Positions 17,220-31,353 of a DNA stretch of 64,000 bases are shown in pieces. The number at the start of each line of letters is the position of its first letter. Within the stretch, counting starts at the first letter, position 1. The DNA is from Spirochaetaceae bacterium (GTDB lineage Bacteria > Spirochaetota > Spirochaetia > DSM-27196 > PWMO01), in the NCBI GenBank assembly GCA_046541715.1, contig JBKHCS010000001.1, positions 34,496 through 98,495 on the forward strand, in the 5' to 3' direction. A program made the position numbers and the translations under genes. Under the pieces are notes generated by a model. The model did not search any database. It was not told the DNA's origin and saw only the letters and a program-made list of their open reading frames with translations.

Positions 17220-17292
17220 GCCGCTGTAGCTCAGTCGGTAGAGCAGTGGACTGAAAATCCACGTGTCGACAGTTCGATTCTGTCCGGCGGCA
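17220..17292 (+). tRNA. tRNA-Phe (anticodon GAA)
   Basis: Manual cloverleaf: acceptor GCCGCTG/CGGCGGC, D-arm GCTC/GAGC, anticodon arm GTGGA-CTGAAAA-TCCAC, T-arm GACAG-TTCGATT-CTGTC, discriminator A. CCA is not encoded. Confidence 0.95.
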
Positions 17293-17526: not shown

Positions 17527-20187
17527 TTAGCTGTTCTTCACGACCGACTGTGCCGCCGCGAGCCGGGCGATGGGCACCCGGAAGGGGGAGCAGGAAACGT
17601 AGTTGAGTCCTGCGCGGTAGCAGAAGTCGATTGAGGATGCCTCTCCACCGTGCTCTCCGCAGATACCGACTTTCAGATTGGGATTGGTCTTGCGACCCTT
17701 TTGCGTTCCCATTTCGACGAGCTGACCGACGCCGGTCTGATCGAGGGCGGCGAAGGGGTCCTGTTCCAGGATACCGTCATCGATGTACTGCGGAAGGAAG
17801 CTTCCGATATCGTCCCGGGAGAACCCGAAGGTCATCTGGGTAAGGTCGTTGGTCCCGAAGGAGAAGAACTCCGCCTGGGTGGCGATCTCGTCGGCGGTCA
17901 GGGCCGCACGGGGTACCTCGATCATGGTGCCGATGAGGTATTCGAGCTTGCTCCCCGCCTTCTCGAGGACATCCTTGCAGACTTTTTCGGCGTTGGCCCG
18001 AAGAATCTCGAGCTCCTTGATGGTACCGACCAGGGGAATCATGATTTCAGGCTGCACCTCGGCGCCACCCTTGGCGACCTCGACGGCCGCTTCCATGATG
18101 GCCTGAACCTGCATGTCGTAGACTTCCGGGTAGGTTATTCCCAACCGGCACCCGCGGTGACCGAGCATCGGGTTGAACTCGTGGAGAGAATCGATCTTGG
18201 CCTTGAGGGCGTCGACGCTTACGCCGGTAGAATTCGCAAGCTCCTTGATTTCCGCCTCGGTGTGTGGGACGAACTCGTGCAACGGCGGATCCAAAAGCCG
18301 TACGGTTACCGGGAAGCCGGCCATCGCCTTGAAAATTCCGACGAAGTCGGACTTCTGCAGCGGCAAGAGTTTCTCGAGGGCTTTTTCCCGGGCAGCCTTG
18401 TCCTCGGCAACGATCATCTGACGGAAAATCCGGATCCGGTCCTCTTCGAAGAACATGTGCTCGGTGCGGCACAGACCGATACCTTCGGCGCCGAACTCCC
18501 GGGCTCGCTTCGCGTCCTCCGGGGTGTCCGCGTTGGTCCGGATGCCGAAGCCCTTCATATCCACGTTCGGCCGCTGGGCCTTGTTCCGGACGTTGTCGGT
18601 CCATTTTAGGAACTTCTCGAGCTGGTCGGAGATTTGGGGCTCGATCAGGGTCAGCTGACCTTCGTAGACTTCGCCGGTGGTTCCGTCGATGGTGATGAAG
18701 TCACCTTCCTTGAAGGACTTGCCCTTTACGTTCATCTGCTTGTTCGCGATCCCTATGTCCTTGGCTCCGGCGACACAGGGGGTACCCATGCCCCGGGCAA
18801 CGACGGCCGCGTGGCTCGTCATTCCACCGGTGGAGGTCAGGATACCTTCCGCAGCGTGCATACCGCCGATGTCCTCCGGGGAGGTTTCCTTTCGGACGAG
18901 AACGACCTTCTTGCCGCTCTTGACCCACTCCTCGGCGTCTTCGGCGGTAAAGACGATCTGGCCGCAGGCGGCACCGGGAGAAGCGTTAAGCCCCTTGGTC
19001 AGCGGTTCCTTGTCCTTGGTGGTGGAAGGGTCGATCATCGGGTGGAATACCTGGTCGAGCTGAGCCGGGGTTACCCGGTTGACCGCTTCGTCCTCGGTAA
19101 GAAGACCCTCTTGCACCATTTCGACGGCGATGCGAATCGCGGCGACGCCGGTTCGTTTTCCGTTACGGGTCTGAAGAATAAAGAGCTTACCCTGTTGGAT
19201 GGTAAACTCCATGTCCTGCATGTCCTTGTAGTGCGCCTCGAGCTTGTCCTTGACTTCGACCAGCTGGTCGTAACTCGTCTGGTCCTTCTTCGGGAGGCTC
19301 TTGATATCCATCGGCGTTCGGATACCCGCGACGACGTCCTCGCCCTGAGCGTTCATCAGGAACTCGCCGTAGAAGTACTTCTCCCCGGTCGAGGGATCCC
19401 GGGAAAAACAGACGCCGGTTCCCGAGTCTTCGCCGAAGTTACCGAAGACCATCGATTGAACGTTGACGGCGGTGCCCTTGAAACCCCGGAGGTCGTTGAG
19501 CTTCCGGTAGCGAACTGCCCGGGGATTGTTCCACGAACCGAATACGGCGTCGATGGCGGCCCAGAGCTGGTCGATGGGATTCTGGGGAAAGTCCTCCCCG
19601 GTATGAGACTTGAAGACCTCTTTGTACTTCTGGACGACCCCCTTCAGGTCGGCGGCATCGAGGTCGGTGTCGAGCTCGACACCCTTCTTCTCTTTGATCG
19701 CGTCGAGAGCGTGCTCGAAGTTTTCGTGCTTAACGCCCTTTACGACGTTCCCAAACATGTTGATAAAGCGACGGTACGAGTCCCAGGCAAACCGCTCATT
19801 GCCCGATTTTTTCGCAAGGCCCTCAACCGCTTTATCGTTGAGTCCGAGATTGAGGACCGTGTCCATCATGCCCGGCATAGAGGCGGCGGCGCCGGACCGG
19901 ACGGAGACCAGAAGCGGGTCGTCGGCGTCGCCGAGCTTCTTACCCATCATCTTCTCGAGCCTATCGAGGTGTTCCGACACTTCCTTGTTCAGGGAGTCCG
20001 GATAGTCTCCGTCGTGATTGTTGTAGTATTCGCATACCTCGGTCGAGATGGTGAACCCCGGCGGGACAGGGACGCCAACATTGGTCATTTCCGCAAGGTT
20101 GGCACCCTTGCCGCCGAGAAGATCCTTCATCTTGGAGGACCCTTCGGCCTTTCCTTCGCCGAAGAAGTAAACGTATTTCGTTGCCAT
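17527..20187 (-). CDS. ppdK: Pyruvate, phosphate dikinase
   Basis: 886 aa with the phospho-His motif GGMTSHAAVVARGMG, the PEP-utilising C-terminal TIM barrel and GICGEHGG. Confidence 0.95.
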   Translation of the reverse strand: MATKYVYFFGEGKAEGSSKMKDLLGGKGANLAEMTNVGVPVPPGFTISTEVCEYYNNHDGDYPDSLNKEVSEHLDRLEKMMGKKLGDADDPLLVSVRSGAAASMPGMMDTVLNLGLNDKAVEGLAKKSGNERFAWDSYRRFINMFGNVVKGVKHENFEHALDAIKEKKGVELDTDLDAADLKGVVQKYKEVFKSHTGEDFPQNPIDQLWAAIDAVFGSWNNPRAVRYRKLNDLRGFKGTAVNVQSMVFGNFGEDSGTGVCFSRDPSTGEKYFYGEFLMNAQGEDVVAGIRTPMDIKSLPKKDQTSYDQLVEVKDKLEAHYKDMQDMEFTIQQGKLFILQTRNGKRTGVAAIRIAVEMVQEGLLTEDEAVNRVTPAQLDQVFHPMIDPSTTKDKEPLTKGLNASPGAACGQIVFTAEDAEEWVKSGKKVVLVRKETSPEDIGGMHAAEGILTSTGGMTSHAAVVARGMGTPCVAGAKDIGIANKQMNVKGKSFKEGDFITIDGTTGEVYEGQLTLIEPQISDQLEKFLKWTDNVRNKAQRPNVDMKGFGIRTNADTPEDAKRAREFGAEGIGLCRTEHMFFEEDRIRIFRQMIVAEDKAAREKALEKLLPLQKSDFVGIFKAMAGFPVTVRLLDPPLHEFVPHTEAEIKELANSTGVSVDALKAKIDSLHEFNPMLGHRGCRLGITYPEVYDMQVQAIMEAAVEVAKGGAEVQPEIMIPLVGTIKELEILRANAEKVCKDVLEKAGSKLEYLIGTMIEVPRAALTADEIATQAEFFSFGTNDLTQMTFGFSRDDIGSFLPQYIDDGILEQDPFAALDQTGVGQLVEMGTQKGRKTNPNLKVGICGEHGGEASSIDFCYRAGLNYVSCSPFRVPIARLAAAQSVVKNS

Positions 20188-20232
20188 AATTCTAATTACC
20201 CCCGATGCATAGTGCTTTAGATTATTTGGTGC

Positions 20233-20261
20233 AGGCTAAAGAAAAAGGGCCCCGGTGTCAA
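20233..20261 (-). promoter_or_regulatory. Possible ppdK promoter (TTGACA-N17-TAGCCT)
   Basis: The -35 TTGACA lies inside the loop of the upstream terminator hairpin. The -10 is weak. Confidence 0.3.
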
Positions 20262-20278
20262 CCTGACCTCCGGGACCC
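20238..20278 (-). terminator. Terminator of the sigma-factor gene
   Basis: Minus strand has a GGGUCCCGG...CCGGGGCCC stem (one G-U pair, 14-nt loop) followed by TTTTTCTTT. Confidence 0.55.
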
Positions 20279-20300
20279 TTGTGTCCTCAGTATAATGCTC

Positions 20301-21185
20301 TTAAGAAATGTAGCTTTCGAGAAGCTGCGCCCTCTTCGGATGCTGCAACCGTTTGATCGCCTTCTTCTCGATCTGACGAATTCGTTCCTTCGTCAGGCTG
20401 TACTTGTCGCCGATCTCCTTCAGGGAGAGGGGGCTCCGGCCGTTCAAACCGAAGCGGTACTGGACGATCTCCGCCTCTTTCGGAGTCAGCGTTCCGAGAA
20501 CCTCGTTGATGTCTTCCTTCAAGGAGTGCTCGATAACCTGCTCTTCCGGGGCTTGGTAGCCTTCGTCTTCCACAAAGTCACCAAGGAGAGAGGAGTCTTT
20601 CTCGGCGTATACCGGCGTCTCGAGGGAGATGAGTTCCCGGGAAATATTGATCAGGTCCGCGACGTGATCCTCGTCCATGTTCAGCGTCTTGGCGATCTGC
20701 TTCATCTCTGCGGTTTCGCCGTTGGAACCCTGGATCTGCTTCCGTACTTTTTCGATCTGCACGAGCTCGTTGGCCCGGTTGAGGGGAAGCCGGATCATCC
20801 TCGACTTCTCGCAGATCGCCTTCAGAATCGCCTGACGAATCCACCAGACGGCGTACGAGATAAAGTGAAATCCTTTGTCAACGTCGAAACGCTCGATGGC
20901 GTTCATCAGTCCGATATTCCCCTCGCTGATGAGGTCGGAAAGCGGCAGACCTTGATTTTGGTACTTCTTCGCGACGTTGACCACGAAGCGCAAGTTTGCC
21001 TGCACCAGCTTGTCTTTGGCCCACTTTTCGTTCCGGGCGGCCGCTCGGGCGTACTTATCCTCTTCTTCCCGGGTCAAAAGGGGTATCTTGTTGATCTCTT
21101 TGAGATATATCGAAAGGACATTCTCGTCGTCCTTGTTTCTCGGGGTGTATCCTTGGGTCTTGGTGCTGTTCTTTACCGCTGCCAT
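20301..21185 (-). CDS. Sigma-70-family alternative sigma factor, RpoS-like (no region 1.1)
   Basis: 294 aa. Region 2 is LRFVVNVAKKYQNQGLPLSDLISEGNIGLMNAIERFD...YAVWWIRQAI. Region 4.2 is SLKEIGDKYSLTKERIRQIEKKAIKRL. GAGGAGG SD. Confidence 0.85.
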   Translation of the reverse strand: MAAVKNSTKTQGYTPRNKDDENVLSIYLKEINKIPLLTREEEDKYARAAARNEKWAKDKLVQANLRFVVNVAKKYQNQGLPLSDLISEGNIGLMNAIERFDVDKGFHFISYAVWWIRQAILKAICEKSRMIRLPLNRANELVQIEKVRKQIQGSNGETAEMKQIAKTLNMDEDHVADLINISRELISLETPVYAEKDSSLLGDFVEDEGYQAPEEQVIEHSLKEDINEVLGTLTPKEAEIVQYRFGLNGRSPLSLKEIGDKYSLTKERIRQIEKKAIKRLQHPKRAQLLESYIS

Positions 21186-21218
21186 TCTTTCCTCCTCTCT
21201 CTATACAATCCCTTAAAA

Positions 21219-21233
21219 GCAAGGAGCGTGCCA
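21219..21233 (-). promoter_or_regulatory. Sigma-54 (-24/-12) promoter: TGGCACG-N4-TTGC
   Basis: Minus strand reads TTGGCACGCTCCTTGCT. The GC of the -12 element is 33 nt upstream of ATG 21185. Confidence 0.65.
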
Positions 21234-21325
21234 ATAGAACGGTACATACCGCTTGACATAACTACCTTTCTAACAATAACTTACAGGGGGATCAGAGGTT
21301 TCTGTTTTGCCGGGTCTTCTCGAAG

Positions 21326-21435
21326 TGGGTCAAATAGTCTCAAGATCGCGTCTTCTGAGAATAGATGGGTCAAATTGACCCCTAACTTAGTTTTGCAGCT
21401 TCTCATGGTGAAATCTTGACCCGGCAACGGTCAAT
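21326..21435. repeat. Array of five GGTCAA/TTGACC half-sites, including a 15-bp palindrome
   Basis: TGGGTCAAAT at 21326-21335 and 21366-21375, exactly 40 bp apart. Palindrome GGGTCAA-A-TTGACCC at 21367-21381. Inverted repeat TTGACC-N7-GGTCAA at 21416-21434. Confidence 0.7.
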
Positions 21436-21444
21436 CCTTATATT
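21416..21444 (+). promoter_or_regulatory. Sigma-70-type promoter of groES (TTGACC-N17-TATATT)
   Basis: Read directly. The -10 ends 52 nt upstream of ATG 21497, and AGGAGG SD is at 21486-21491. Confidence 0.5.
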
Positions 21445-21496: not shown

Positions 21497-21763
21497 ATGA
21501 AGGTCAAACCGCTTGGCGACCGCGTTCTGCTCAAGACCGAGAAAGAAGAGGAAAAGACCAAAGGTGGTCTCTTTATCCCCGAAACTGCCCAAGAGAAGAC
21601 CCAGTCGGGCATCGTAGAGGCAGTCGGCGACGACGAAGAGGTTATCAAGGTCAAGAAGGGTGACCACGTGATGTACGACAAGTACGCCGGCACCAGCATC
21701 AAGATCGACGACGCGGACTACCTGATCGTCAAAATGGACGACATCATCGCCATCGTAGAGTAG
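21497..21763 (+). CDS. groES: Co-chaperonin GroES
   Basis: 88 aa, MKVKPLGDRVLLK...GGLFIPETAQEK...GD.V.Y.KYAG. No groEL follows. Confidence 0.95.
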   Translation: MKVKPLGDRVLLKTEKEEEKTKGGLFIPETAQEKTQSGIVEAVGDDEEVIKVKKGDHVMYDKYAGTSIKIDDADYLIVKMDDIIAIVE

Positions 21764-21794: not shown

Positions 21795-21830
21795 GGGGCT
21801 GTCCCACCAGGTGGGGCGGCCCCTTTTTTT
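21795..21830 (+). terminator. Rho-independent terminator of groES (hairpin shared with convergent dinG end)
   Basis: GGGGCTGTCCCAC-CAG-GTGGGGCGGCCCC followed by TTTTTTT. Confidence 0.8.
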
Positions 21831-24276
21831 ATTCGGAGGTCTCCTCCAAGAACCGTTCAACCCGTTCGAAGACCTCCCCGGCTCCGGCGATAATGCGCTG
21901 GGTCTCCGGGAGGGACGCGAGAAAGAGCGAACCGTATTGCTTCTTGACGATCCGGGCGTCGGCAATCAGAACCACCCCCCGATCCCTCCGGTGCCGCATC
22001 AGGCGGCCGAAGCCTTGTCGCAAACGGGTAATCGCCTCCGGTACGCTAAAGTCCATAAACGGGTTCCCCCCGGTTCGTTCGATTGCCGCCATCCGCGCCA
22101 GGGTTACCGGATGCGTAGGCACCCGGAACGGGAGCCGGGTTACGACCACGAGCTTGAGGGTCTCCCCCGGAGCGTCAACTCCGGCCCAGAAGCTGTCGGT
22201 GGCAAAGAGCACGCTCGCCATATCCGCGGAAAATCGCCCGAGAAGGCGGCTCCGCTCGTCCTCCCCTTGGTACAGACAGCTGATGCCCCTTTCCCGAAGC
22301 GTCGGAGCAACCGCCCCGTAGGTCTCCATGAGAAGCTGATACGAGGTAAAGAGAATGAGAGCTCCGCCTCCGGACCTCTCGACACTCTCGAGAACCAACT
22401 TCGCGAGAAACGTTTCGTACCCCTCTTCCGTCGGCAGGGGACCATCGGTCGGGATTCCGAGGAGCACCCGCTCCCGGAAGGCGAAGGGAGAGGGATAGGT
22501 CGACTCGACGAGCCGGTCGGCTTCGAGGTGGTGGCTTCCGAGGCGCCGACGATAGAACTCGAAGCTCCCCTGAATGGTCAAGGTGGCGCTCAGGAAAAGG
22601 ACCGACGGGTACTGGTCGTAGACCGCCTCTTTCATGAGGTTGCCGATCTCCAAGGGGCTCACGGTAAACCGGGTGTACGCGTCTCCTTTTTTACGGCTCG
22701 AGAGCTCGAGCCAGCAGACAGAATCCGGCCGGGCAGCGGGATCCTGAAGAATACCGCAGAGCTCGGAGACCCGCCCAAGGCGCCGGTAGACCCCCCGGGC
22801 TTCGAGGAACAGGGGATCCTCGGTGGCCTCCTCCGGGAGGTTTGAAAGGTCCTGCTGCAGCGCGTCCAAAAGCTCTCCGAGGGCCAGTCGGAGAGCCTCG
22901 AGGCCCTCCCGGAGAGACGCCGGCGGCAGGCTGTCCGAATCCGGGCGAAGCCAGAGACTCGAGTCCTCGCGTAAGGACGCCGTCGCGGTCGCGTCGATCG
23001 CCGCCGCAGCCTCCTCCACACCGGGGATGAGCCCCCGAAGCCGCGAGAAAGCGTGCCCCTCGCCGTAGCCCTCTGCAAGCCCCGACAGAATCCCCAGCTC
23101 CCGCCCCCGCTTCCGGCGCACCAGGCGCCGCAACTGCTTCGCGATCGACAGTCGGGAAAAGGATTCGGAGAAGAAGGAGGTCGCGCTCGTCTCGACCTCG
23201 TGGGCCTCGTCGAAGATAAGCCGTTTAAAGGGCGGAAGAACCGCCGTGGCATCGAAGCCAACCGCCTGGAGCCGCAAGCTCAAGTCGGAAAAGAGCAAAT
23301 GATGATTGACGATCAGGATGTGCGCCTTCGCGGCTCGTCGCCGGGCTTGGACAACGAAGCAGTGGGGCTTCTGGGAGCGGCACTTCGCGGCGGAACAGCT
23401 ATCGGGATCCGAATTGACCCTCTCCCAAAGGCTGTCGGCGGGATAAAAGGGGGCGTCGCTTCGGCTACCTGTTTCGGTCACCTCGGCCCACTCACGCAAC
23501 GCCTCGAGGTCCGCGCTCTCCTCGTTGAAGAGCGACTGCTCCTTCAGCTCCTCCTCCAAGCGCGCCCGGCAGAGATAGTTGCCCCTTCCCTTGACGAGTA
23601 CTGCCGAAACGTCGCTACCTAAAAGCCGTTGTGCGATCGGGATGTCTTTTTCGACGAGCTGCTGCTGGAGGTTGATCGTCGCAGTCGACACGACGATCCG
23701 CTCGTTGTTCTGTTTGGCCCAGGCGAGAGCCGGAATAAGGTAGGCGAGGGACTTTCCCACACCGGTCCCCGCCTCGGCAAAAAGTACCCGGTCCTCTCCA
23801 AAGGCCTCCGCGACGGCCTCCAGGAGCAGCTGCTGACTCTCCCGTACTTCGAAGCTCGGCATGGCTCCGGCGAGGGGACCGTCGTCGTCGATCAACCGGA
23901 CGAGCTCGAAGGTGTCGAGGGGCTCGATCGCCTCCAGGAGGAGCGGCTCGGTCACGACGTAGACGCGGTCGACCTCGTTGTCGACGATGTACATACCGAC
24001 ACCGATCCGGGAGAGCTGAGAGGCAACCTCGAGGTCCGCGCCGCTCGGAGAGAGCGTTCCGCTCGGATGGTTGTGGATGATAACATCCCCCCGCTCCACT
24101 TCGTGAGCCGGAGCAAGAACGGTAACCGGGTTTCCTCGAGCGCGAATCCGGACCTCGGACACCATTCCCGTGTCGTCGACGGAGCAGACGAAAAGGACTT
24201 CGTTTCCACCGGCGTCGGCAATGGCTTCTTTGATGGTCGCTTGCGGCTCCGGATAGAGCCGCTCGTCGGCTTGCAT
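21829..24276 (-). CDS. dinG: DinG/XPD-family Fe-S helicase with N-terminal RadC-like JAB/JAMM domain
   Basis: 815 aa from ATG 24276. The N-terminal ~120 aa carry HNHPSGTLSPSGAD, which is H-x-H-x7-S-x2-D. The rest has Walker A AGTGVGKS, DEAH (FDEAHEVE) and a 4-Cys cluster (C...C-x4-C-x6-C). The ORF-track N-terminus (to 25518) is antisense to asd. Confidence 0.85.
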   Translation of the reverse strand: MQADERLYPEPQATIKEAIADAGGNEVLFVCSVDDTGMVSEVRIRARGNPVTVLAPAHEVERGDVIIHNHPSGTLSPSGADLEVASQLSRIGVGMYIVDNEVDRVYVVTEPLLLEAIEPLDTFELVRLIDDDGPLAGAMPSFEVRESQQLLLEAVAEAFGEDRVLFAEAGTGVGKSLAYLIPALAWAKQNNERIVVSTATINLQQQLVEKDIPIAQRLLGSDVSAVLVKGRGNYLCRARLEEELKEQSLFNEESADLEALREWAEVTETGSRSDAPFYPADSLWERVNSDPDSCSAAKCRSQKPHCFVVQARRRAAKAHILIVNHHLLFSDLSLRLQAVGFDATAVLPPFKRLIFDEAHEVETSATSFFSESFSRLSIAKQLRRLVRRKRGRELGILSGLAEGYGEGHAFSRLRGLIPGVEEAAAAIDATATASLREDSSLWLRPDSDSLPPASLREGLEALRLALGELLDALQQDLSNLPEEATEDPLFLEARGVYRRLGRVSELCGILQDPAARPDSVCWLELSSRKKGDAYTRFTVSPLEIGNLMKEAVYDQYPSVLFLSATLTIQGSFEFYRRRLGSHHLEADRLVESTYPSPFAFRERVLLGIPTDGPLPTEEGYETFLAKLVLESVERSGGGALILFTSYQLLMETYGAVAPTLRERGISCLYQGEDERSRLLGRFSADMASVLFATDSFWAGVDAPGETLKLVVVTRLPFRVPTHPVTLARMAAIERTGGNPFMDFSVPEAITRLRQGFGRLMRHRRDRGVVLIADARIVKKQYGSLFLASLPETQRIIAGAGEVFERVERFLEETSE

Positions 24277-24338
24277 GGGTGGTGCAATGATAGCCGCCCG
24301 AGACCCCCCGGGCAATCCTGACTCCGGTGGTTCCGACC

Positions 24339-24368
24339 TTGACACCCCTCCGTTTTGCTCAGTAGAGT
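24339..24368 (+). promoter_or_regulatory. Possible asd-lysC promoter (TTGACA-N18-TAGAGT)
   Basis: Read directly in the 108-bp divergent spacer. It predicts a ~10-nt leader. Confidence 0.4.
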
Positions 24369-24384
24369 TCCGGAACCTTACGTC

Positions 24385-25428
24385 ATGAGTAACAACAAGA
24401 TACCCGTAGCCATCCTCGGTGCCACCGGGACCGTGGGCCAGAAGTTCGTTCTCCTCCTCTCGGATCATCCGCTCTTCGAGATTACCGAGGTCGTCGCATC
24501 CTCTCGTTCCGCCGGAAAGACGTACGCCGAGGCGACGGCCTGGAAACAGGATGCTGCGATTCCTGCGGCCGTCGCGTCGATGCCGGTAAAGGGCACCGAG
24601 GAAACCCTCGCCGGCGGTATTCTCTTCTCCGGCCTCGACAGCAGCGTCGCCGGGCCCGCGGAGGAGCAGTACGCCGAGGCCGGTCACTTGGTTATCAGCA
24701 ACGCAAAGAACCACCGGATGGACCCCGACGTTCCGCTGACGATTCCGGAGATCAACCCGGACCACTTCGCCCTGGTCGACAAGCAGCGCTACGCCGGGGG
24801 CATCATCACCAATTCCAACTGCTCGACCATGTTCCTCGCGATGGCCCTTGCGCCCCTGATGCCCTTCGGCATCGAGGCAGTCCAGGTAACCACGATGCAA
24901 GCGATAAGCGGCGCCGGCTACCCCGGTGTGCCGTCGATGGACATTCTCGGAAACGTCGTCCCCTATATCGGGGGAGAGGAAGAGAAGCTCGAGGAAGAGG
25001 CCGCGAAGATTCTCGGAACCCTCTCGGGGGACCGGATCGAGCCGGCGCCCTTTCTGGTGAGCGCCCAATGCAACCGCGTCCCCGTCTTCGACGGTCATAC
25101 CGAAACGGTGAGCATCAAGTTCAAGAAGCGGGTGACTCCCGACGAGGTCCGCAGGGCGATGGAGACCTTTTCCGGTATGCCTCAGGAAAAGGGGCTTCCG
25201 AGCGCTCCGCCTCGGCCGATTATCGTTATGGACGCGCCGGACAGGCCCCAGCCGGCCCGGGACGTCTGGATCAGCAAGGGGATGGCGACAATCGTAGGAC
25301 GCATCCGAAAGTGTCCCGTTTTCGACGTCAAGTTCGTGGTCCTGGGTCACAACACCGTCCGGGGAGCCGCCGGGGCGGCTGTTCTGAACGCCGAGGCCTA
25401 CGTGGCTCTCGGCTACTACTCCCCATGA
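24385..25428 (+). CDS. asd: Aspartate-semialdehyde dehydrogenase
   Basis: AILGATGTVGQ Rossmann motif and active-site SNCSTM. Start set at ATG 24385 (MSNNKIPVAILG). Confidence 0.9.
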   Translation: MSNNKIPVAILGATGTVGQKFVLLLSDHPLFEITEVVASSRSAGKTYAEATAWKQDAAIPAAVASMPVKGTEETLAGGILFSGLDSSVAGPAEEQYAEAGHLVISNAKNHRMDPDVPLTIPEINPDHFALVDKQRYAGGIITNSNCSTMFLAMALAPLMPFGIEAVQVTTMQAISGAGYPGVPSMDILGNVVPYIGGEEEKLEEEAAKILGTLSGDRIEPAPFLVSAQCNRVPVFDGHTETVSIKFKKRVTPDEVRRAMETFSGMPQEKGLPSAPPRPIIVMDAPDRPQPARDVWISKGMATIVGRIRKCPVFDVKFVVLGHNTVRGAAGAAVLNAEAYVALGYYSP

Positions 25429-26762
25429 CCGTCTTAAAGTTCGGCGGCTCGTCGGTCGCCGACGCCGGATGGATTCGCCGGGTCGTCGATATCGTGACGC
25501 CCCGGATCGCCGAGGCACCGATCGTCGTCGCCTCGGCGATGGGCAAAACCACCGACAGATTGGTGGAAATCGCCTCAGAGGGCGCCCGGGGCCGCCTCCG
25601 GGAGGCGGAAGCGATCCTCGAAGGCGTCGCGGAGCATCACCGGAACGCCACCCGGGAGCTTTTCGGCGGGAGCCTTCTTGAAGAGGTCCTCGGTACCGTC
25701 GACGCCCTCCTCTCGGAGCTCAATTCCGTCATCCATGGTCTGGTCTTGGTAAGGGAGTGCACCCCTCGTAGCTTCGACGCGATTCTCTCCTTCGGAGAGC
25801 GTCTCTCGACGGTTATCCTTTCGGCAGCCTTCCGGAGCGGCGGCGTCGACGCGATTCTGCTCGACAGCCGACGCCTGATAGTGACGGACGACGAATTCTC
25901 CTCCGCTATGCCCGACTTTGAGGCAACCAACCGGACCATCCGGGAGCAGGTTCATCCCGCCCCGGGAGCCGTTCTGGTGCTCCAAGGCTTTATCGCCTCG
26001 ACCAAAGAGGGGGTAACCACCACCCTCGGCCGCGGAGGATCCGACTTTACGGCGACCATTGTCGGAGCGGCCCTCGGGGCCGACGCCGTCGAGATATGGA
26101 CCGACGTCAACGGCATCATGACCAGCGATCCCCGGGTCGTTCCCAGTGCCCAGACCCTCACCGAGATTAGCTACGCCGAGGCGGCGGAGTTGGCCTTCTT
26201 CGGAGCGAAGGTCGTCCACCCCTTTACGATCGAGCCGGCCATCGAGTTGGGCATCCCGGTCTGGGTCCGGAACACCGGGAACCCCGAGCACCCCGGGACG
26301 CGGATCTCGGAGAGCTCCGTCGAGAAGGGAGTCCGGGCCCTAGCGGCCAAGAAGGACGTAACCCTCGTAAGTGTCCAGTCCTACCGGATGCTGAACGCTC
26401 ACGGGTTTCTGGCAAGCATCTTTACCATCTTTGCCGAGGCGCGTATTTCGGTGGACTTGGTGGCAACCTCGGAAGTCTCGGTTTCGATGACCCTCGACCG
26501 AACCGAGGGGCTCGGTTCGGTGGTGAAGCGACTCGAAGACCTCGGCACCGTCGAAGTGGAAACCCGGCGAGGAATCGTCTGCCTCGTCGGAAAGGGACTC
26601 TGGCGGGATTCGGCGGTCGTTGCCCGGGTCTTCAATACCCTCGAGGATGTACCCTTGAGGATGATCTCCCTCGGCTCCTCGGACACGAACCTCTCCCTCG
26701 TCGTCGCCGAAGATGACGCCGACAGGGCGGTTCGGAAACTCCACGCGGCCTTCTTCGATTAA
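25425..26762 (+). CDS. lysC: Aspartate kinase (monofunctional, two ACT domains)
   Basis: MTVLKFGGSSV start with an ATGA overlap onto the asd stop. The ORF-track N-terminal extension lies inside asd. Confidence 0.9.
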   Translation: MTVLKFGGSSVADAGWIRRVVDIVTPRIAEAPIVVASAMGKTTDRLVEIASEGARGRLREAEAILEGVAEHHRNATRELFGGSLLEEVLGTVDALLSELNSVIHGLVLVRECTPRSFDAILSFGERLSTVILSAAFRSGGVDAILLDSRRLIVTDDEFSSAMPDFEATNRTIREQVHPAPGAVLVLQGFIASTKEGVTTTLGRGGSDFTATIVGAALGADAVEIWTDVNGIMTSDPRVVPSAQTLTEISYAEAAELAFFGAKVVHPFTIEPAIELGIPVWVRNTGNPEHPGTRISESSVEKGVRALAAKKDVTLVSVQSYRMLNAHGFLASIFTIFAEARISVDLVATSEVSVSMTLDRTEGLGSVVKRLEDLGTVEVETRRGIVCLVGKGLWRDSAVVARVFNTLEDVPLRMISLGSSDTNLSLVVAEDDADRAVRKLHAAFFD

Positions 26763-26783: not shown

Positions 26784-27185
26784 ATGGATTTTTTCAATCG
26801 GATAGCACGGCTTATCGACGCCGCCCTGAACGACGACACCGTTTCTCCGGGTTCCGCCTCGGGAGCCGTTTCCGGGGATAGAGACTACCACGAAGCGTGG
26901 AAGGAGCTCGACGACTACCTAAAGGGAGCCGAGGCCCACTACCGGGGAGAGGAGCGTCCCGCCCCCGAAGCGGGCCTCCCCCCGGAGATCCTCCAAGCCT
27001 ACCGTGATCTCGAGGTATCTCCCTACGCCTCCTTGGGGGAGGTCCGGGAGGCGTACCGCCGATTGCAGATTCGGTATCATCCCGACCGGTTCGGTGCGAG
27101 TCCGGAGAAGCAGAAGCTCGCCACCGAGATCGCCACGCGGCTCAACGAATCCTACGCCCGAATCCGGAACTACCTCGGAGATTAA
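26784..27185 (+). CDS. J-domain (DnaJ-like) protein
   Basis: 133 aa with a C-terminal J-domain containing the HPD motif (YRRLQIRYHPDRF). Confidence 0.7.
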   Translation: MDFFNRIARLIDAALNDDTVSPGSASGAVSGDRDYHEAWKELDDYLKGAEAHYRGEERPAPEAGLPPEILQAYRDLEVSPYASLGEVREAYRRLQIRYHPDRFGASPEKQKLATEIATRLNESYARIRNYLGD

Positions 27186-28573
27186 CCGTCGGTCGACGCC
27201 TTCGGTGGCACCGCTTCCGAGAGATGGTAGTCTGCGATTTTGCGATGGAGAGTCTTACGCCCGATCCCGAGGGCTTCGGCGGTCTTGCTCTTGTTGCCGT
27301 TGTTGTAGTTCAAGGTAGAGCGGATGATCTCTTGCTCCGCTTCGGCGAGGGTGGAGCCCACCGGGACCCGGATGTAGTCCTGCTCGTTCTCGGTGTTGAT
27401 CGTCGGCGGGAGGTCGTCGACGGTGATTATGTTTCCTTTCGACAGCACGACCGCGCTCTCGATGCAGTTCCGAAGCTCCCGGACGTTTCCGGGCCAGGAA
27501 TACTTGTAGAGAGCCGCCCGGGCCTTAGGATCGATTCCCTCGACCGGCTTTTCATTCTCCTGGGCGAACTCCCGGATAAACGAAGAGACCAAAAGCGGAA
27601 TGTCTTCCTTCCGCTCCCGGAGAGGTGGAATGTGGATATTGACGACGTTGAGGCGGTAAAAGAGATCCTCCCGGAAGGTACCCTTCTCGATCTCGACCTT
27701 CAGCTCCTTATTGGTCGCCGAGATGATGCGAACATCGACCTCGAGGGTCTCCTCGCCCCCTACCCGCTCGAACCTCTTCTCCTGGAGCACCCGGAGAATC
27801 TTTATCTGTACGCTCTGGTTGATCTCCCCGATCTCGTCGAGAAAGATGGAGCCCATATGAGCCAACTCGAAGCGGCCCCGCTTGCGACCCACGGCCCCGG
27901 TAAAGGCGCCCTTTTCGTGGCCGAAAAGCTCGCTCTCGAGAAGCGATTCCGAGAGGGCCGCACAGTGAACCTTGATAAAGGGCTTTTCCCTCCGGTTGGA
28001 CAGATTATGGAGGGCGTCGGCAATCAGCTCCTTCCCGACTCCGCTCTCCCCCGTAATGAGCACCGAAGCCTTCGTCGGCGCAACCTGCTTGACCAGATCG
28101 AGAATGCGCTGCATCTCTGAGGACTTGCCGATGATGTTGGCGAACTGCCGCTGAGACTTCAGCTCCTCCTGCATCGCCCGGTGCTGCAGCACCAACTCCC
28201 TCGTCGAGAGCGCCCTCTTGACCAGAAGCGAGAGGCGGTCGAGATTTACCGGTTTCGTAAGGAAGTCGAAGGCTCCGTCTCTCATCGACTGAACCGCCGT
28301 CTCGATCGTGCCGTGACCCGTCAGGATGATAACGGGAATCGTCGGCCAGGAATCCACGACCCGCCGGAGGAGCTCCTCTCCCGAGAGCCGGGGCATCCGT
28401 AGATCCGCGATAATAAGGTCGACCTCCTCCTGGTGAATAATCTCGAGAGCCTCCTGCCCATCCTCCGCCAAAAGGGTGTTGTGACCGTCCATTTCCAAGG
28501 CCTTGCCGAGGCCTTGACGGATGTTCTTCTCGTCGTCGACTATCAGTACGTTAAACTTCACGTTCCTCACCAC
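27182..28573 (-). CDS. Sigma-54-dependent response regulator (NtrC/Rrp2-like bacterial enhancer-binding protein)
   Basis: REC domain (VLIVDDE...IIADLRMP), AAA+ domain with GESGVGKE and the GAFTGA motif, and a C-terminal Fis-type HTH. Confidence 0.9.
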   Translation of the reverse strand: MVRNVKFNVLIVDDEKNIRQGLGKALEMDGHNTLLAEDGQEALEIIHQEEVDLIIADLRMPRLSGEELLRRVVDSWPTIPVIILTGHGTIETAVQSMRDGAFDFLTKPVNLDRLSLLVKRALSTRELVLQHRAMQEELKSQRQFANIIGKSSEMQRILDLVKQVAPTKASVLITGESGVGKELIADALHNLSNRREKPFIKVHCAALSESLLESELFGHEKGAFTGAVGRKRGRFELAHMGSIFLDEIGEINQSVQIKILRVLQEKRFERVGGEETLEVDVRIISATNKELKVEIEKGTFREDLFYRLNVVNIHIPPLRERKEDIPLLVSSFIREFAQENEKPVEGIDPKARAALYKYSWPGNVRELRNCIESAVVLSKGNIITVDDLPPTINTENEQDYIRVPVGSTLAEAEQEIIRSTLNYNNGNKSKTAEALGIGRKTLHRKIADYHLSEAVPPKASTDG

Positions 28574-29726
28574 TCCAGCTCAAGAGATGCTGTTCCCGTT
28601 GAGGAATCGGGAACAAAATGGAAACGGTCGTCCCCTCGCCGGGGTGTGATACGACCGAGATCTCTCCCTTGTGTTCCTTGACCACCTTGTACACAAGCGT
28701 TAGGCCGATCCCGGAACCGAAGTCCTTCGTCGTAAAGTAGGGCTCGAAAATCTTGCCGAGGTTCTCTTCCGGAATACCCTCTCCGGTATCGCTTATTCGT
28801 AAGAGGACCTCGTCGCCCCGGCGTTCGGTGGAAAAGGTCAGCCTACCGCCGTCGGGCATCGCGGCGAGGGAGTTCTTAACCAGGTTCATCAACGCTTGCT
28901 TTACGAACTTCTGATCGAGATCCAGGTCCGGGAGATCCTCGGCCAAATACGCCTCTGTCTCTACCCCATGCTCCTTGACCTCGTACCGGAGAAACTCCAT
29001 CAGGTCCCGGATAATCTGGTTGATGTCGCTCCGTTCCGGCTGCACGTCGACCGGTCGCACGGCAAAGAGAAAATCGACGACGATCCGGTTGAGACGGTCG
29101 ACCTCCTCGTTTACCACGTCGACGAAGCCAAGGACGCGCTCCCGGTCCATCTGTTCCTCGGCAAGCGCTTTCTGAATCAGTTGGATGTGGATGCCGATGG
29201 AACCGAGGGGATTCTTTATTTCGTGGGCGACTCCCGCGGCGAGGGTCGTAAGGGAGGCCAGGCTTTCGGCCCGTCGAAGGCGGGCTTCCCGGCTCCGCTT
29301 GTCGGTAATATCAACCGCATGAACGATGTTTCCCTGGATGTGCCCCTCCCGTACCAAGGGCTCGATACAGACCGACAGAATCTTCATCGAGCCGGATTCC
29401 CCGAGGACGAACTCTTTGTCGGCCACGGCATACTGCCTCTCGAGGGCGTCCTGCACGAACGCGGAGAGATCCGGGTCTCCGATAGCTTCCCACACGAGGC
29501 GCTCGTGGGGATCGTGATGCCCGTTGACGGTCAACAACCGCTCGGCTGCCTTGTTTGCCAGGGTTATCCGGTTGGCGTCGTCGGCGACGACCACCGCGTC
29601 GCTCATGGAGTCAAGAACGACGAGCATCCGCTCGTTCTCCGAAGCCAGGTCTGAGAGGAGCAGCCGCAGTTGCGAAGGATCGAGCTTATCGAATTTTTTT
29701 AGCGCACGCTCAAGAAACTTCCTCAT
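28551..29726 (-). CDS. Cytoplasmic PAS-domain sensor histidine kinase (NtrB/Hk2-like)
   Basis: No TM segments. PAS region, H-box VAHEIKNPLGS, and G-boxes DTGEGIP/GSGIGL. It overlaps the response-regulator start. Confidence 0.85.
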   Translation of the reverse strand: MRKFLERALKKFDKLDPSQLRLLLSDLASENERMLVVLDSMSDAVVVADDANRITLANKAAERLLTVNGHHDPHERLVWEAIGDPDLSAFVQDALERQYAVADKEFVLGESGSMKILSVCIEPLVREGHIQGNIVHAVDITDKRSREARLRRAESLASLTTLAAGVAHEIKNPLGSIGIHIQLIQKALAEEQMDRERVLGFVDVVNEEVDRLNRIVVDFLFAVRPVDVQPERSDINQIIRDLMEFLRYEVKEHGVETEAYLAEDLPDLDLDQKFVKQALMNLVKNSLAAMPDGGRLTFSTERRGDEVLLRISDTGEGIPEENLGKIFEPYFTTKDFGSGIGLTLVYKVVKEHKGEISVVSHPGEGTTVSILFPIPQREQHLLSWSGEEREV

Positions 29727-30867
29727 AGAGTTTGCTCAGCTGCCGGCGAAGCGGTGGGAAGAGCTGCTGCTTCGGAATATTAAGCACCGTGGCCCGGCGT
29801 CGGGTCGTTTCCAGAAGTTCGAGCATTGCGGAAAAGGTCTCGGCGTTATGTTGATCCGCTCCTTCGTGAAAGGCTGCCCTCAGCGAATTCGTCAGCCGCT
29901 CGAAGAGCAGCTCCAAGGGAATACCCTCTTTCTCCGTCTCCGCCGTGGTAAGAAGCTCGTTGATGCCCTCCAATCCCGGCGGGACACTCCGGTCCGACGT
30001 GGTTAGAAGGTACTCACGGACGCTATCCCGTTCAAGCTCCTCGATGTGGAAGACTCGGCGGAGTACTTCCTGCTCCTCCTCTTTCCGGCGGAGGGGGAAC
30101 CGGTAGATTCGAAGCCGCGAAAGAAGGGTCGGAAGGAGAGTTTTCGGTCTTCTGGTGGTCAGTATCAGCGTGAGCCCCGAAGGCGGCTCTTCGAGGAGCT
30201 TCAGGAGAGCGTTCGCCCCGGAGTCGGTCAGGTTTTCCGCACGCTCGATAATCGCGACCTTCCGGGCCCCGAGTCCCGTTAGGTGGCCCCAGGAAGTGAG
30301 GCTCCGAATCTGTTCGATAGATATCTGAGTAAGGGGGGCCTTCTTCTCTATTGCCGCGGCCGTCTCGATCAGCGACGAAAGCTGCTTCTCGAGCTTCGCC
30401 TCCGGGAGCAGCTCTCCTTCGGGGTCTAAGTCGAGAAGCTCTTCCTCCATCTTCGCTAAAAGCCCCTGGACCGCCTTCCGCTTCGGCGCCGCGTTGTCCC
30501 ATAGGGCGTCGTCAAACCGCCTGAGCAGCTTTCGCAAAGCCCTGACAAAGAGGAAGGCCGCTCCCCGGCGGCGGGTCCGTTTAAGGGCGTCGGCTGCGGC
30601 GACGATCTCCGGCGCGAACTCCTTTGGTCCCAAGAGCAGGGTATCGGGATGGATCAGGTGCCGGTGGAGCGTGCAGGATCGGCAGGTGCACCGCCAACGA
30701 GCCGTGCCTTCGAGGCACGTCAGCCCCCGGGCGGTCTCGAGGGCCACGGTTCCCTTGCCGCCGAGGGGGACGCCGGCAAAGAGGACGCTCGGCGGGAGGG
30801 TCGATTCTTCGAGGTCTTGTGTGAGGCGGCCGGTTACCCTCCGGTGACCGATGACGTTTTCGTACAT
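29710..30867 (-). CDS. holB: DNA polymerase III delta-prime-like AAA+ protein
   Basis: N-terminal clamp-loader pattern (VIGHRRV..., LFAGVPLGGKGT), a Cys-rich Zn module (CTCRSC) and SRL-type motif (TLLSRLR). Confidence 0.65.
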   Translation of the reverse strand: MYENVIGHRRVTGRLTQDLEESTLPPSVLFAGVPLGGKGTVALETARGLTCLEGTARWRCTCRSCTLHRHLIHPDTLLLGPKEFAPEIVAAADALKRTRRRGAAFLFVRALRKLLRRFDDALWDNAAPKRKAVQGLLAKMEEELLDLDPEGELLPEAKLEKQLSSLIETAAAIEKKAPLTQISIEQIRSLTSWGHLTGLGARKVAIIERAENLTDSGANALLKLLEEPPSGLTLILTTRRPKTLLPTLLSRLRIYRFPLRRKEEEQEVLRRVFHIEELERDSVREYLLTTSDRSVPPGLEGINELLTTAETEKEGIPLELLFERLTNSLRAAFHEGADQHNAETFSAMLELLETTRRRATVLNIPKQQLFPPLRRQLSKLYEEVS

Positions 30868-30870
30868 CGG

Positions 30871-31353
30871 CTACCTCCTTACCAGCATTTCGGCGACGTA
30901 GGGCAGAAACGGCAAGAGTGCCCGGGCAAAGAAGCTCCCCCGCAGAAGCCTTTCGGGGTCGGCGACAGGCTGTATCTGAATCAACAGGATAAGCAGAAAG
31001 ACGACGACGACACCTTCGACCACGCCAAGGAGGAGCCCCATGGCGTGGTCCAAACTCTGGAGGTGCACCCGCTCGATCATACGGTGGAGGGCGTTTTCGA
31101 AGAGCTTGATCAGGACGTAGAGCACCACGAAGATACCGAGAAAAGCGATGATCTGGTTCCACACCGAGACACCGAGCCATTCGTCGAGGTAGCCGGCGAC
31201 GGTTCCCGAGAAGAGGACCGCGACGACGACTCCGAGAGCCAACGAAGCTACCGAGAGCGCCTCTTTGACGAAGCCCCGAAGCCCCGCCCGAAGCGTTGCA
31301 AAGATTACGATAATGCCGAAAACGACGTCGATCGCGGTAAAATCGGTGCTCAC
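30871..31353 (-). CDS. cvpA: CvpA-family membrane protein
   Basis: 160 aa with 4 TM segments. N-terminal IDVVFGIIVIFATLRAGLRGF is typical of CvpA. Confidence 0.7.
   Translation of the reverse strand: MSTDFTAIDVVFGIIVIFATLRAGLRGFVKEALSVASLALGVVVAVLFSGTVAGYLDEWLGVSVWNQIIAFLGIFVVLYVLIKLFENALHRMIERVHLQSLDHAMGLLLGVVEGVVVVFLLILLIQIQPVADPERLLRGSFFARALLPFLPYVAEMLVRR

Follow-up and report, generated by a model that had tools for sequence, protein, structure and literature searches.

The 64,000-nucleotide stretch analysed here (the 64-kb window) carries on its minus strand a gene for a group-2-type sigma-70-family factor of 294 aa (20301..21185), assigned by Pfam, NCBIfam and PDB searches. Directly upstream of this gene lies a very probable sigma-54 (-24/-12) promoter. 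Two palindromes that may serve as its enhancer are located further upstream, and an NtrC-type activator and a histidine kinase are encoded in the same window. An intrinsic terminator follows the sigma-factor gene (20238..20278, minus strand), consisting of a GC-rich hairpin (20278-20247) and the stretch UUUUUCUUU (20246-20238). The RNA fold of this terminator has an energy of -32.2 kcal/mol (z = -4.7), and 0 of 200 shuffled sequences were equally stable. As the transcript is expected to end at this terminator, the sigma-factor gene appears to be monocistronic.

We assigned the promoter (21218..21234, minus strand) from its sequence, its uniqueness and its conservation among orthologues. The minus strand from 21234 to 21218 reads T-TGGCACG-CTCC-TTGC-T, as had originally been claimed (21233-21218 is TGGCACGCTCCTTGCT). 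The accompanying claim that all the invariant positions of the -24/-12 consensus are matched also holds, and the agreement extends to every specified position of the longer consensus YTGGCACG-N4-TTGCW (TTGGCACGCTCCTTGCT, 21234-21218, minus strand). The GG and GC doublets are exactly 10 nt apart, with the -24 GG at 21232-21231 and the -12 GC at 21220-21219. Exactly 33 nt separate the -12 C (21219) from the ATG (21185-21183), and the Shine-Dalgarno sequence GAGGAGG (21191..21197, minus strand) lies between them, 5 nt 5' of the ATG; both points had been predicted and were confirmed. The promoter is thus intergenic and in the correct orientation. A GGAGG-type Shine-Dalgarno sequence was also read in nearly all the orthologous loci, and the distance from the -12 C to the start codon was 17-38 nt, with a median of 24, in 78 of them. 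From the usual sigma-54 geometry, transcription is predicted to start at 21205..21209 (minus strand), ∼12 nt 3' of the -12 C, which would leave a 5' UTR of ∼22 nt.

The sequence TGGCACG-N4-TTGCW occurs only once on the two strands of the window, where 0.018 exact matches are expected by chance in a mononucleotide model. When one mismatch was allowed, the mean over dinucleotide shuffles of the window was 0.22. Two other sigma-54-like strings, TGGCATCGGGAATGCT (at 56762) and TGGTACCAGTGGTGCT (at 43328), lack TTGC and lie within long open reading frames of the opposite strand, and we regard them as chance occurrences. No sigma-70-like promoter was found on the strand of the sigma-factor gene in the intergenic region, and the -24/-12 element is probably its sole promoter.

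Next, we consider the sigma factor itself. In the Pfam search the Sigma70 regions 1.2, 2, 3 and 4 were present and region 1.1 was absent, which is the architecture of group 2, and the protein also lacks the non-conserved insert. Its scores were below the cut-offs of both families of named factors: 259.6 bits against 378.7 for the RpoS equivalog TIGR02394, and 304.6 against 555 bits (NF004208) and 268.7 against 354 bits (TIGR02393) for RpoD. Among the solved structures, SigA/RpoD were slightly closer than RpoS in the PDB search; the best NCBIfam match of the N-terminal 62 residues was the RpoS model. No second sigma-70 gene was found within the 64-kb window.

Proteobacterial RpoS (TIGR02394 / PRK05657) is likewise a short, primary-like sigma factor in which regions 1.2-4 are present and region 1.1 is missing. 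The protein differs from it in its score, in forming a spirochaete clade of its own and at the position of Lys173. In E. coli RpoS, K173 is a promoter-discriminating residue that reads the C at -13 (PMC6719511). When the protein was aligned using the motif and the numbering of that study (PMC6719511), Asn139 occupied the Lys173 position, with Arg137 two residues earlier. The prediction of an RpoS-like sigma factor without region 1.1 therefore stands for the architecture only, as the RpoS cut-off is missed and K173 is replaced. The protein belongs to a large, conserved family of Spirochaetota, a separate spirochaete-specific clade with the signatures YAVWWI and RLPxNRA. Public pipelines name this family 'RpoD/SigA' or 'primary sigma factor', labels that clash with the alternative-factor architecture and with the promoter of the gene.

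The original prediction would have been contradicted if the -24/-12 block were not conserved upstream of orthologous sigma genes. We aligned the upstream regions of 80 orthologous loci from GTDB species genomes, with sigma protein identities of 71-99%. The set included Spirochaetaceae MAGs, Marispirochaeta, Alkalispirochaeta, Salinispira, Sediminispirochaeta, a Treponema sp. and Breznakiellaceae. We observed the following. GG[C/T]A[C/T]-N5-TTGC was present in the same place in all the 80 loci. The strict form, TGG[CT]A[CT]-N5-TTGC, was directly 5' of the sigma gene in 74 of them, and the remaining 6 had A/CGGCAC-N5-TTGC. The strict motif occurred 75 times in 612 kb x 2 strands (1.2 Mb of strand), 74 times at the sigma gene and once elsewhere. 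Positions outside those used for selection also fitted the sigma-54 logo, with T at -1 in 74/80 loci, G or A after TGGCAY in 80/80 and A or T after TTGC in 77/80, while the four spacer positions and the flanks were unconstrained. The clade consensus is tTGGCAYG-N4-TTGCWt. As the same element is kept in every orthologous locus with a varying spacer and flanks, the match in the window is not a chance one, and nothing contrary to the prediction emerged among the points that could be checked computationally.

The element was also present in 10/10 more distant metagenome loci (sigma identity 47-75%), as well as in a Rectinema MAG and a Sphaerochaetaceae MAG. As a negative control, it was found in 0/68 short sigma genes outside the clade (36-49% identity). 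In a neighbor-joining tree the promoter-bearing sigma genes formed one clade, with no promoter-less gene inside it. The promoter-bearing taxa belong to two NCBI orders, Treponematales and Spirochaetales, the latter of which includes Borreliaceae.

Upstream of the promoter, we observed two palindromic sites. The proximal candidate enhancer site (UAS; 21326..21342; minus strand, TGAGACTATTTGACCCA) has its start 110 nt 5' of the -24 GG. It matches 11 of 14 positions, its left half being degenerate. The distal candidate UAS (21366..21382, GGGGTCAATTTGACCCA) lies exactly 40 bp further upstream and matches 13 of the 14 positions of TGGGTCA-N3-TGACCCA. The 17-mer of the candidate activator-binding palindrome is TGGGTCAAATTGACCCA.

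These sites are conserved in position as well. In 61 of 79 loci a 17-bp palindrome TGnGTCA-N3-TGACnCA, with at least 11 of 14 positions matched, has its start at -116..-103; 0.02 loci are expected from a background rate of 2e-5 per position. A second site was found at -157..-143 in 26/79 loci, and of 50 pairs of adjacent sites, 41 had a spacing of exactly 40 bp. The half-site TGACCCA was present in 43/79 upstream regions and in 1/79 controls. The distance from the palindrome to the promoter is constant within ∼12 bp in roughly 70 species, and is held next to groES as well as next to a TPR ORF on the upstream side. The palindrome pair is a new, previously unnoticed feature. Inverted, usually tandem and conserved in position, it has the classical layout of an enhancer for an NtrC-type activator, and we propose it as a candidate for that role on these sequence grounds. 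Taken with the conservation of the -24/-12 element, it makes us fairly confident that the sigma-54-dependent promoter is functional and has an upstream enhancer of its own, and that it serves a monocistronic group-2-type sigma gene. A third apparent palindrome, TTGACC-N7-GGTCAA (21416-21434), is better read as the sigma-70-like promoter of the divergent groES gene (TTGACC-17-TATATT).

The domain searches bore out the earlier claim that the window encodes a sigma-54 activator with a GAFTGA loop (27182-28573) and a PAS kinase (28551-29726). The former (27182..28573, minus strand) is an NtrC-type enhancer-binding protein with receiver (REC), sigma-54 AAA+ and HTH_8 domains. It scored 106 bits for Response_reg, 238.5 for Sigma54_activat, 105 for AAA_lid_14 and 49 for HTH_8 in Pfam, and both GAFTGA and a Walker A motif were found. 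It fell below every NCBIfam equivalog cut-off, with AtoC as the top match. The histidine kinase (28551..29726, minus strand), with PAS, HisKA and HATPase_c domains, most resembles AtoS in NCBIfam, again below the cut-off. Its PAS domain begins at residue 33, which leaves little room for a membrane domain, and we take the kinase to be cytoplasmic. As with Hpk2 of T. denticola, the PAS domain points to oxygen or redox as a possible inducing signal. The two genes overlap by 23 nt, and the kinase is presumably the cognate sensor of the activator. We did not find an RpoN box in six-frame translations of the 64-kb window, of the first 80 loci or of all the 170 loci (1.16 Mb); since this contig encodes a GAFTGA activator, we infer that the genome has rpoN.

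The kinase/activator pair is located 6-9 kb from the sigma gene, and this synteny is kept in the loci L081 and L083 and in the Sphaerochaetaceae MAG L169. The HTH motif of the activator, GNKSK..LGIGRKTL.RK, is conserved at 59-77% overall identity. Judging from the synteny, we consider the pair at 29726-27182 the most likely activator of the promoter, a view that we hold by a small margin over doubt. A less probable arrangement, which still deserves serious consideration, is that the promoter and its enhancer are real and are used by another enhancer-binding protein, whose gene lies elsewhere in the genome, while the 27182-29726 pair controls other genes. Free-living spirochaetes may encode several NtrC-type activators. 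None of the 80 loci has an activator within 4 kb, and the Rectinema sigma gene has both the promoter and the palindromes with no kinase/activator pair within 10 kb, so the linkage is not universal. Moreover, the conserved block runs mostly through housekeeping genes (murG, holB, aspartate kinase, helicase), and the synteny may reflect general conservation of gene order rather than a functional link. Against a different activator, the linkage of the pair with the sigma gene extends from Spirochaetaceae as far as the Sphaerochaetaceae MAG, in which the sigma factor is only ∼50% identical, and strong conservation is seen in the HTH of the activator as well as in the palindrome. In addition, Hk2-Rrp2 of Borrelia and Hpk2-Rrp2 of T. 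denticola share its domain layout (PMC12472547; PMC12070737).

With the linked pair as the activator, we propose the following mechanism. Activators bound to enhancers act on the closed complex of sigma-54 polymerase as a general principle (PMC3037356, PMC1976401). Here, sigma-54 RNA polymerase would form such a complex on the -24 GG and -12 GC (21232/21219). The NtrC-type activator, once its receiver domain is phosphorylated, would oligomerise on the palindromes at 21326-21342 and 21366-21382, whose centres lie 40 bp from each other, at ∼100 and ∼140 bp 5' of the -24 element. DNA looping would bring it to the polymerase, and the GAFTGA loop together with ATP hydrolysis would open the promoter. 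Transcription would begin near 21207 and produce an mRNA with a leader of ∼22 nt, hardly more than the ribosome-binding site, and with its 3' end at the hairpin terminator (20278-20238). The new sigma factor would then redirect the core polymerase to a regulon of its own, and in this way the signal of a single kinase would become a genome-wide switch.

A cascade of this type is known from Borrelia, where rpoS is transcribed under Rrp2 and RpoN (PMC1976401; PMC3037356) and its expression also requires BosR (PMC3037356). Rrp2 showed no binding within the 238 bp upstream of rpoS, and activation takes place without an enhancer (PMC1976401); an enhancer is therefore not strictly required at such promoters. 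Hk2-Rrp2 consists of an activator with REC, AAA+ and HTH domains encoded beside a cytoplasmic PAS-type kinase (PMC12472547). The Borrelia rpoS promoter, which we read from published primers, is TTGGCACAGTTTTTGCAT, and the promoter fragments in print carry 59 bp of downstream DNA (PMC1976401).

The locus in the window resembles this Rrp2-RpoN-RpoS cascade in several respects. In both, a -24/-12 promoter precedes, by a few tens of nt, the start codon of a short sigma-70-family factor without region 1.1, a REC-AAA+-HTH activator gene adjoins that of a PAS kinase, and the organisms belong to the class Spirochaetia. The clade consensus agrees with the Borrelia promoter in class and position. The Borrelia sequence nearly equals TTGGCACGCTCCTTGCTT here, and the promoter of locus L088 (TTGGCACAGTTTTTGCT) is one base off it. 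The two differ in that the window has a pair of conserved 17-bp palindromes ∼100 and ∼140 bp upstream, whereas Borrelia rpoS has no enhancer. BosR is a further requirement in Borrelia. The present spirochaete is rich in GC (59.6%) and apparently free-living.

It is conceivable that the cascade is real and not homologous to that of Borrelia, the sigma factor not being the orthologue of BB0771 and sigma-54 control having been gained independently; we consider this unlikely, though only a little more so than a different activator. Sigma-54 promoters also precede other sigma genes, as in rpoH P6 of E. coli and the RpoN->FliA cascades. We screened the 150 best 50%-identity representatives for cluster names and for an AT-rich amino-acid composition and recognised no Borrelia RpoS among them, and no Borrelia-specific RpoS model was among the NCBIfam matches reported for the sigma sub-regions. 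Nor did a query made of Rrp2 peptides translated from published primers, yield a candidate, and the Borrelia rpoS promoter string was absent from viral_contigs. An independent origin would also be consistent with the use of BosR in place of an enhancer in Borrelia (PMC1976401; PMC3037356), and the origin of BB0771 is debated (PMC6719511). On the other hand, both organisms are of the same class, and promoter-bearing families from two orders stand on either side of Borreliaceae. The form and position of the promoter are the same, down to the single-base difference at L088. The published residue numbers of Borrelia RpoS (I79, corresponding to E. coli I128, and R121/K122) fit the sigma protein without indels, with R137 at the K122 position.

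These points favour a shared origin, and an ancestral circuit of the class Spirochaetia would be the parsimonious reading of the sequence comparisons, given the conservation of the promoter across two orders, its absence outside the clade and the same form of the Borrelia promoter. The original prediction of an ancestral spirochaetal circuit is thus supported for the class, from the 80/80 loci and the two orders, and does not extend to the phylum, as Leptospira is without RpoS (PMC12655853). We incline, without strong conviction, to the view that the Borrelia Rrp2-RpoN-RpoS cascade is a stripped-down remnant of a class-ancestral module. The free-living relatives and the Treponema lineages would have kept the complete, enhancer-dependent version, while in the Borrelia line the loss of the enhancer would have been accompanied by the recruitment of BosR. 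The parts of the ancestral module may have been a group-2 sigma factor with its sigma-54 promoter and tandem 17-bp enhancer, together with an NtrC-type activator and a PAS kinase. If this is true, the same cascade is expected in pathogenic treponemes. In the literature covered by our search, we found no prior description of this promoter outside Borrelia.

The role of the palindromes can be judged from the NtrC system. The glnAp2-type NtrC enhancers of enteric bacteria are tandem 17-bp inverted repeats of the 7-3-7 form, which precede a sigma-54 promoter by roughly 100-140 bp. The sites described here share this form, number and location, and the candidate activator has the corresponding REC, AAA+ (GAFTGA) and Fis-type HTH domains; looping is presumed by the same analogy. 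They differ from glnAp2 in their half-site (TGnGTCA / TGACnCA, which is not that of NtrC), in the strict 40-bp spacing and in their target, which is a sigma-factor gene and not nitrogen assimilation. It could be argued that the palindromes are operators for a regulator other than an enhancer-binding protein, either a repressor or a co-activator like BosR of Borrelia, with sigma-54 activation proceeding from solution. Borrelia rpoS needs a second factor of this kind, and Rrp2 works there without an enhancer (PMC3037356; PMC1976401). We nevertheless regard this as improbable: the tandem 7-3-7 palindromes at fixed distances of ∼100 and ∼140 bp have the classical NtrC-type layout, and a distance held within ∼12 bp in roughly 70 species fits looping more readily than repression, since the site of a repressor normally overlaps with the promoter. 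The fixed spacings of 40 bp and roughly 100 bp would also imply a dependence on helical phase.

That the -24/-12 match is accidental or non-functional, or that the gene is a housekeeping sigma gene with an unrecognised sigma-70 promoter, as the public 'RpoD/SigA' and 'primary sigma factor' labels might suggest, is effectively refuted by the 80/80 conservation with a free spacer. The expectation of 0.018 exact matches, the lack of region 1.1, the shortfall of 304.6 bits against the RpoD cut-off of 555 and the lack of a sigma-70-like site on the strand of the gene also speak against it.

The promoter and the sigma gene are therefore a real, deeply conserved example of an already known type of cascade. 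The Lyme disease agent uses the sigma-54-to-RpoS cascade as its central virulence switch, and the Borrelia papers cited here treat it in that pathogen alone. This wiring is a fixed feature of about 95 lineages, mostly free-living spirochaetes, of two orders. As the promoter and the palindromes are common to these lineages, the cascade looks old and widely shared in spirochaetes, and the question shifts from how the cascade was invented in Borrelia to what Borrelia changed. A strictly positioned double enhancer in the ancestral form, absent in Borrelia, could explain why Rrp2 has retained a DNA-binding domain without a known site at rpoS. In T. denticola, Hpk2-Rrp2 pairs a PAS-domain kinase with a predicted sigma-54 enhancer-binding response regulator, of which it is stated that 'Rrp2 remains unstudied', its target promoters being unknown (PMC12070737). 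The pair in the window is like it in domain layout, a PAS kinase with a predicted sigma-54 activator in a spirochaete. A testable cascade is predicted in Treponema denticola and possibly in T. pallidum, and the defined 17-bp motif offers a handle on the rest of the activator's regulon.

Two other gene models overlap the region. A 308-aa version of the sigma factor (protein P0001, 99% identical) has 14 additional codons, and its start would reach the promoter; we preferred the ATG that follows the conserved Shine-Dalgarno sequence. A 404-aa open reading frame antisense to the sigma gene (20205-21419, plus strand) was taken as an artefact of high GC content. The search of Rfam gave no known RNA in the region, its sole match being a tRNA at 17220-17292.

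We examined the sigma gene (20301–21185, minus strand), for which a near-consensus sigma-54 promoter had been predicted, as in the Borrelia Rrp2-RpoN-RpoS cascade. It encodes a 294-aa protein with Pfam sigma-70 regions 1.2, 2, 3 and 4; region 1.1 was absent by Pfam, as the original prediction had held. On the same strand, the -24/-12 promoter T-TGGCACG-CTCC-TTGC-T was read at 21234–21218, with the -24 GG at 21232–21231, the -12 GC at 21220–21219, 33 nt between the -12 C and the ATG (21185), and a Shine-Dalgarno GAGGAGG (21197–21191, minus strand) 5 nt 5' of the ATG. The promoter string, this distance and the Shine-Dalgarno sequence had all been described accurately. When both strands of the window (G+C = 59.6%) were searched, exact TGGCACG-N4-TTGCW occurred once, against 0.018 exact matches expected from a composition model; one-mismatch matches had a mean of 0.22 in dinucleotide shuffles. 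Looser sigma-54 patterns gave two other window sites only, the weak strings TGGCATCGGGAATGCT (56762–56777, plus strand) and TGGTACCAGTGGTGCT (43328–43343, plus strand), both inside long ORFs of the opposite strand and judged to be chance matches. No sigma-70-like promoter was found on the sigma gene's strand of the intergenic region. A terminator, made up of a stable hairpin with a U-tract behind it (20278–20238, minus strand), closes the transcription unit.

Scanning GTDB, with each species represented by one genome, yielded 80 loci with 71–99% protein identity to the window's sigma, from many MAGs as well as Marispirochaeta, Alkalispirochaeta, Salinispira, Sediminispirochaeta, a Treponema sp. 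and Breznakiellaceae. We observed TGG[CT]A[CT]-N5-TTGC immediately upstream of the sigma gene in 74 of the 80; in the remaining six the -24 part was AGGCAC or CGGCAC, with spacing and TTGC unchanged. The original prediction had looked to orthologous upstream regions, and the -24/-12 block was found in all 80 GTDB species loci. The strict pattern occurred 75 times in 612 kb of loci (both strands), 74 of them at the sigma gene. We then aligned the 80 loci on the GG and compared positions outside the selection pattern with the sigma-54 logo. These positions, none of which had been used for selection, agree with the logo: the base before the GG is T in 74/80 loci, that after TGGCAY is G or A in 80/80, and that after TTGC is A or T in 77/80. 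No base was preferred at any of the four positions of the spacer or in either flank. Invariant GG/GC doublets at fixed spacing in free surroundings indicate selection on a putative sigma-54 binding site; recent shared ancestry does not appear to explain the pattern. The finding holds up, and is far stronger than a single-sequence match would suggest. As the -12 C lies only 17–38 nt (median 24; 78 loci) from the start codon, with a GGAGG-type ribosome-binding site in between, the predicted leader is very short.

Among 50%-identity representatives, the nearest clusters, at 50–63% identity, were still spirochaetal (Rectinema, Sphaerochaetaceae, Spirochaetaceae), and the promoter was present at the sigma gene in MAG contigs of Rectinema (TTGGCACGCTTTTTGCTT) and a Sphaerochaetaceae bacterium (TTGGCACGATTCTTGCA). 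A metagenome scan, using an alignment headed by a Sphaerochaetaceae sequence, gave another set of 80 loci. All 10 that were 47–75% identical to the window's sigma carried the promoter (one as the variant TGGCATAAAACCTGCA), and none was found at ∼68 other short sigma genes of 36–49% identity. In a neighbour-joining tree, 22/22 promoter-bearing proteins and 5/6 spirochaetal representatives fell in one clade that contained 0/68 promoter-less proteins. The promoter-bearing taxa belong to the orders Spirochaetales and Treponematales, and Borreliaceae is placed within Spirochaetales (NCBI taxonomy). A second short-sigma clade is represented by P0130, a protein from a 'Spirochaetaceae bacterium' (L165/L166:3001–3831) that is 51% identical to the window's sigma and is encoded on contigs of at least 1 Mb. 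This locus has no sigma-54 promoter and no palindrome of the kind described below, its gene neighbourhood differs and adjoins msrA, and the protein lies outside the promoter-bearing clade; it is either a paralogue or a protein of another lineage.

Farther upstream, the heptamer TGACCCA was present in 43/79 upstream regions and in 1/79 control segments. It makes up one half of the 17-bp palindrome TGnGTCA-N3-TGACnCA, which we scored at ≥11/14 specified positions, counting its start upstream of the -24 GG. A proximal palindrome starts at 103–116 nt in 61/79 loci and a second at 143–157 nt in 26/79; the background of 12 sites in 579 kb corresponds to 0.02 loci expected per 14-nt position window. 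Of 50 pairs of adjacent palindromes, 41 had a spacing of exactly 40 bp. In the Treponema sp. and Breznakiellaceae loci (L055, L058) there are two or three palindromes, again in 40-bp steps, starting at 180–260 nt instead of ∼110 and ∼150 nt, which suggests that the phase between putative sites is more constrained than their absolute distance from the promoter. Palindromes were also found in distant metagenome loci, Rectinema and the Sphaerochaetaceae MAG, two-site cases being 39–40 bp apart. In the window, the candidate sites are at 21326–21342 (proximal; 11/14, with a degenerate left half) and 21366–21382 (distal; 13/14). The palindrome-promoter distance is kept with either upstream neighbour, divergent groES (∼300 bp, in the window) or a same-strand TPR/SEC-C ORF, and the palindromes therefore belong to the sigma promoter. 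The conserved pair is a candidate strictly positioned double enhancer, added to a known circuit type.

A sigma-54 activator with an intact GAFTGA and a PAS kinase had also been reported, and domain searches recovered both: the candidate activator (REC, sigma-54 AAA+ with GAFTGA, HTH_8; 27182–28573, minus strand) and the kinase (PAS, HisKA, HATPase_c; 28551–29726, minus strand). Both genes share the strand of the sigma gene and are located 6 kb upstream of it, following murG, cvpA and holB. The pair holds the same position in two Spirochaetaceae contigs (sigma 77% and 84% identical), and the whole block murG-cvpA-holB (DNA polymerase III delta')-PAS kinase-activator (27182–32442, minus strand) is retained in the Sphaerochaetaceae MAG (L169:1–4157; sigma ∼50% identical). 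The four activators compared are 59–77% identical and share the HTH motif GNKSK..LGIGRKTL.RK. In Rectinema, no kinase-activator pair was found within 10 kb of the sigma gene. From synteny alone, the pair is a plausible partner of the sigma promoter; murG is presumably also near hk2-rrp2 in Borrelia.

The rpoS gene of B. burgdorferi has a -24/-12 promoter used by RpoN with the activator Rrp2 (PMC3037356), whose gene adjoins that of the cytoplasmic kinase Hk2 (PMC12472547). Its promoter, taken from published primers, is AAATTGGCACAGTTTTTGCATG (PMC1976401), which has the form of the clade consensus and is one base off that of a distant metagenome locus (L088). Rrp2 does not bind within 238 bp upstream of rpoS and activates without upstream DNA (PMC1976401), BosR being needed instead (PMC3037356); the free-living relatives would thus have the classical enhancer-dependent architecture, whereas the Borrelia version looks like a derived, enhancer-less one. 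The status of the Borrelia protein BB0771 as a true RpoS is disputed (PMC6719511); the residue numbers published for Borrelia can be matched to the window protein without indels, Arg137 occupying the position of Borrelia Lys122. As Leptospira has no RpoS (PMC12655853), any ancestral status is limited to the class Spirochaetia, not the phylum. The Rrp2 of T. denticola, a predicted sigma-54 activator, has been described as unstudied (PMC12070737). In the literature searched, the cascade was described for Borrelia only, and neither this promoter nor its candidate enhancer was reported from another spirochaete. The circuit is best classed as a new case, very broadly conserved, of a known type, in which sigma-54 is predicted to drive an alternative sigma-70-family factor.

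The sigma protein is 96–99% identical to translated genes of three uncultured Spirochaetaceae MAGs and is a member of a family of ∼290-aa proteins that is very large and tightly conserved, labelled, where labels are given, 'RpoD/SigA' or 'primary sigma factor' (Spirochaetaceae, Spirochaetales, Spirochaetia, Alkalispirochaeta). The window's protein is not a proteobacterial RpoS: it scores 259.6 bits against that family (cut-off 378.7) and has Asn at the position of E. coli RpoS Lys173. In the database, the model of P0001, a protein 99% identical to it, has 308 aa and so exceeds the 294-aa ORF by 14 codons; its upstream start would extend into the promoter. A 404-aa ORF (20205–21419, plus strand), antisense to the entire sigma gene and promoter region, is most likely spurious, of a kind common in GC-rich DNA.

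In many lineages, including Treponema sp., Breznakiellaceae, Marispirochaeta, Sediminispirochaeta and Rectinema, a conserved ORF of ∼165–250 aa with weak TPR and SEC-C-motif matches immediately precedes the sigma gene on its strand (for example L026:3075–3755, L055:3048–3710, L040:3101–3823 and L167:9118–9792), with the candidate enhancer at, or just past, its 3' end. This ORF may act as a partner of the sigma factor; it is absent from the window, having been lost in this lineage. Here the divergent neighbour is groES (Cpn10, 88 aa; 21497–21763, plus strand), solitary with no groEL behind it, as also in L081 and L083 (Spirochaetaceae contigs) and L169. A third inverted repeat (21416–21434) is better read as the -35 region of its sigma-70-like promoter on the other strand, TTGACC-17-TATATT (21416–21444, plus strand), a good match. 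Next after groES, and convergent with it, is a gene for a 1229-aa DinG-like helicase (21829–25518, minus strand). Next after the sigma gene is that for pyruvate phosphate dikinase (17527–20187, minus strand), and just past its 3' end lies a tRNA gene (17220–17292, plus strand), the only Rfam gathering-level match in the window.
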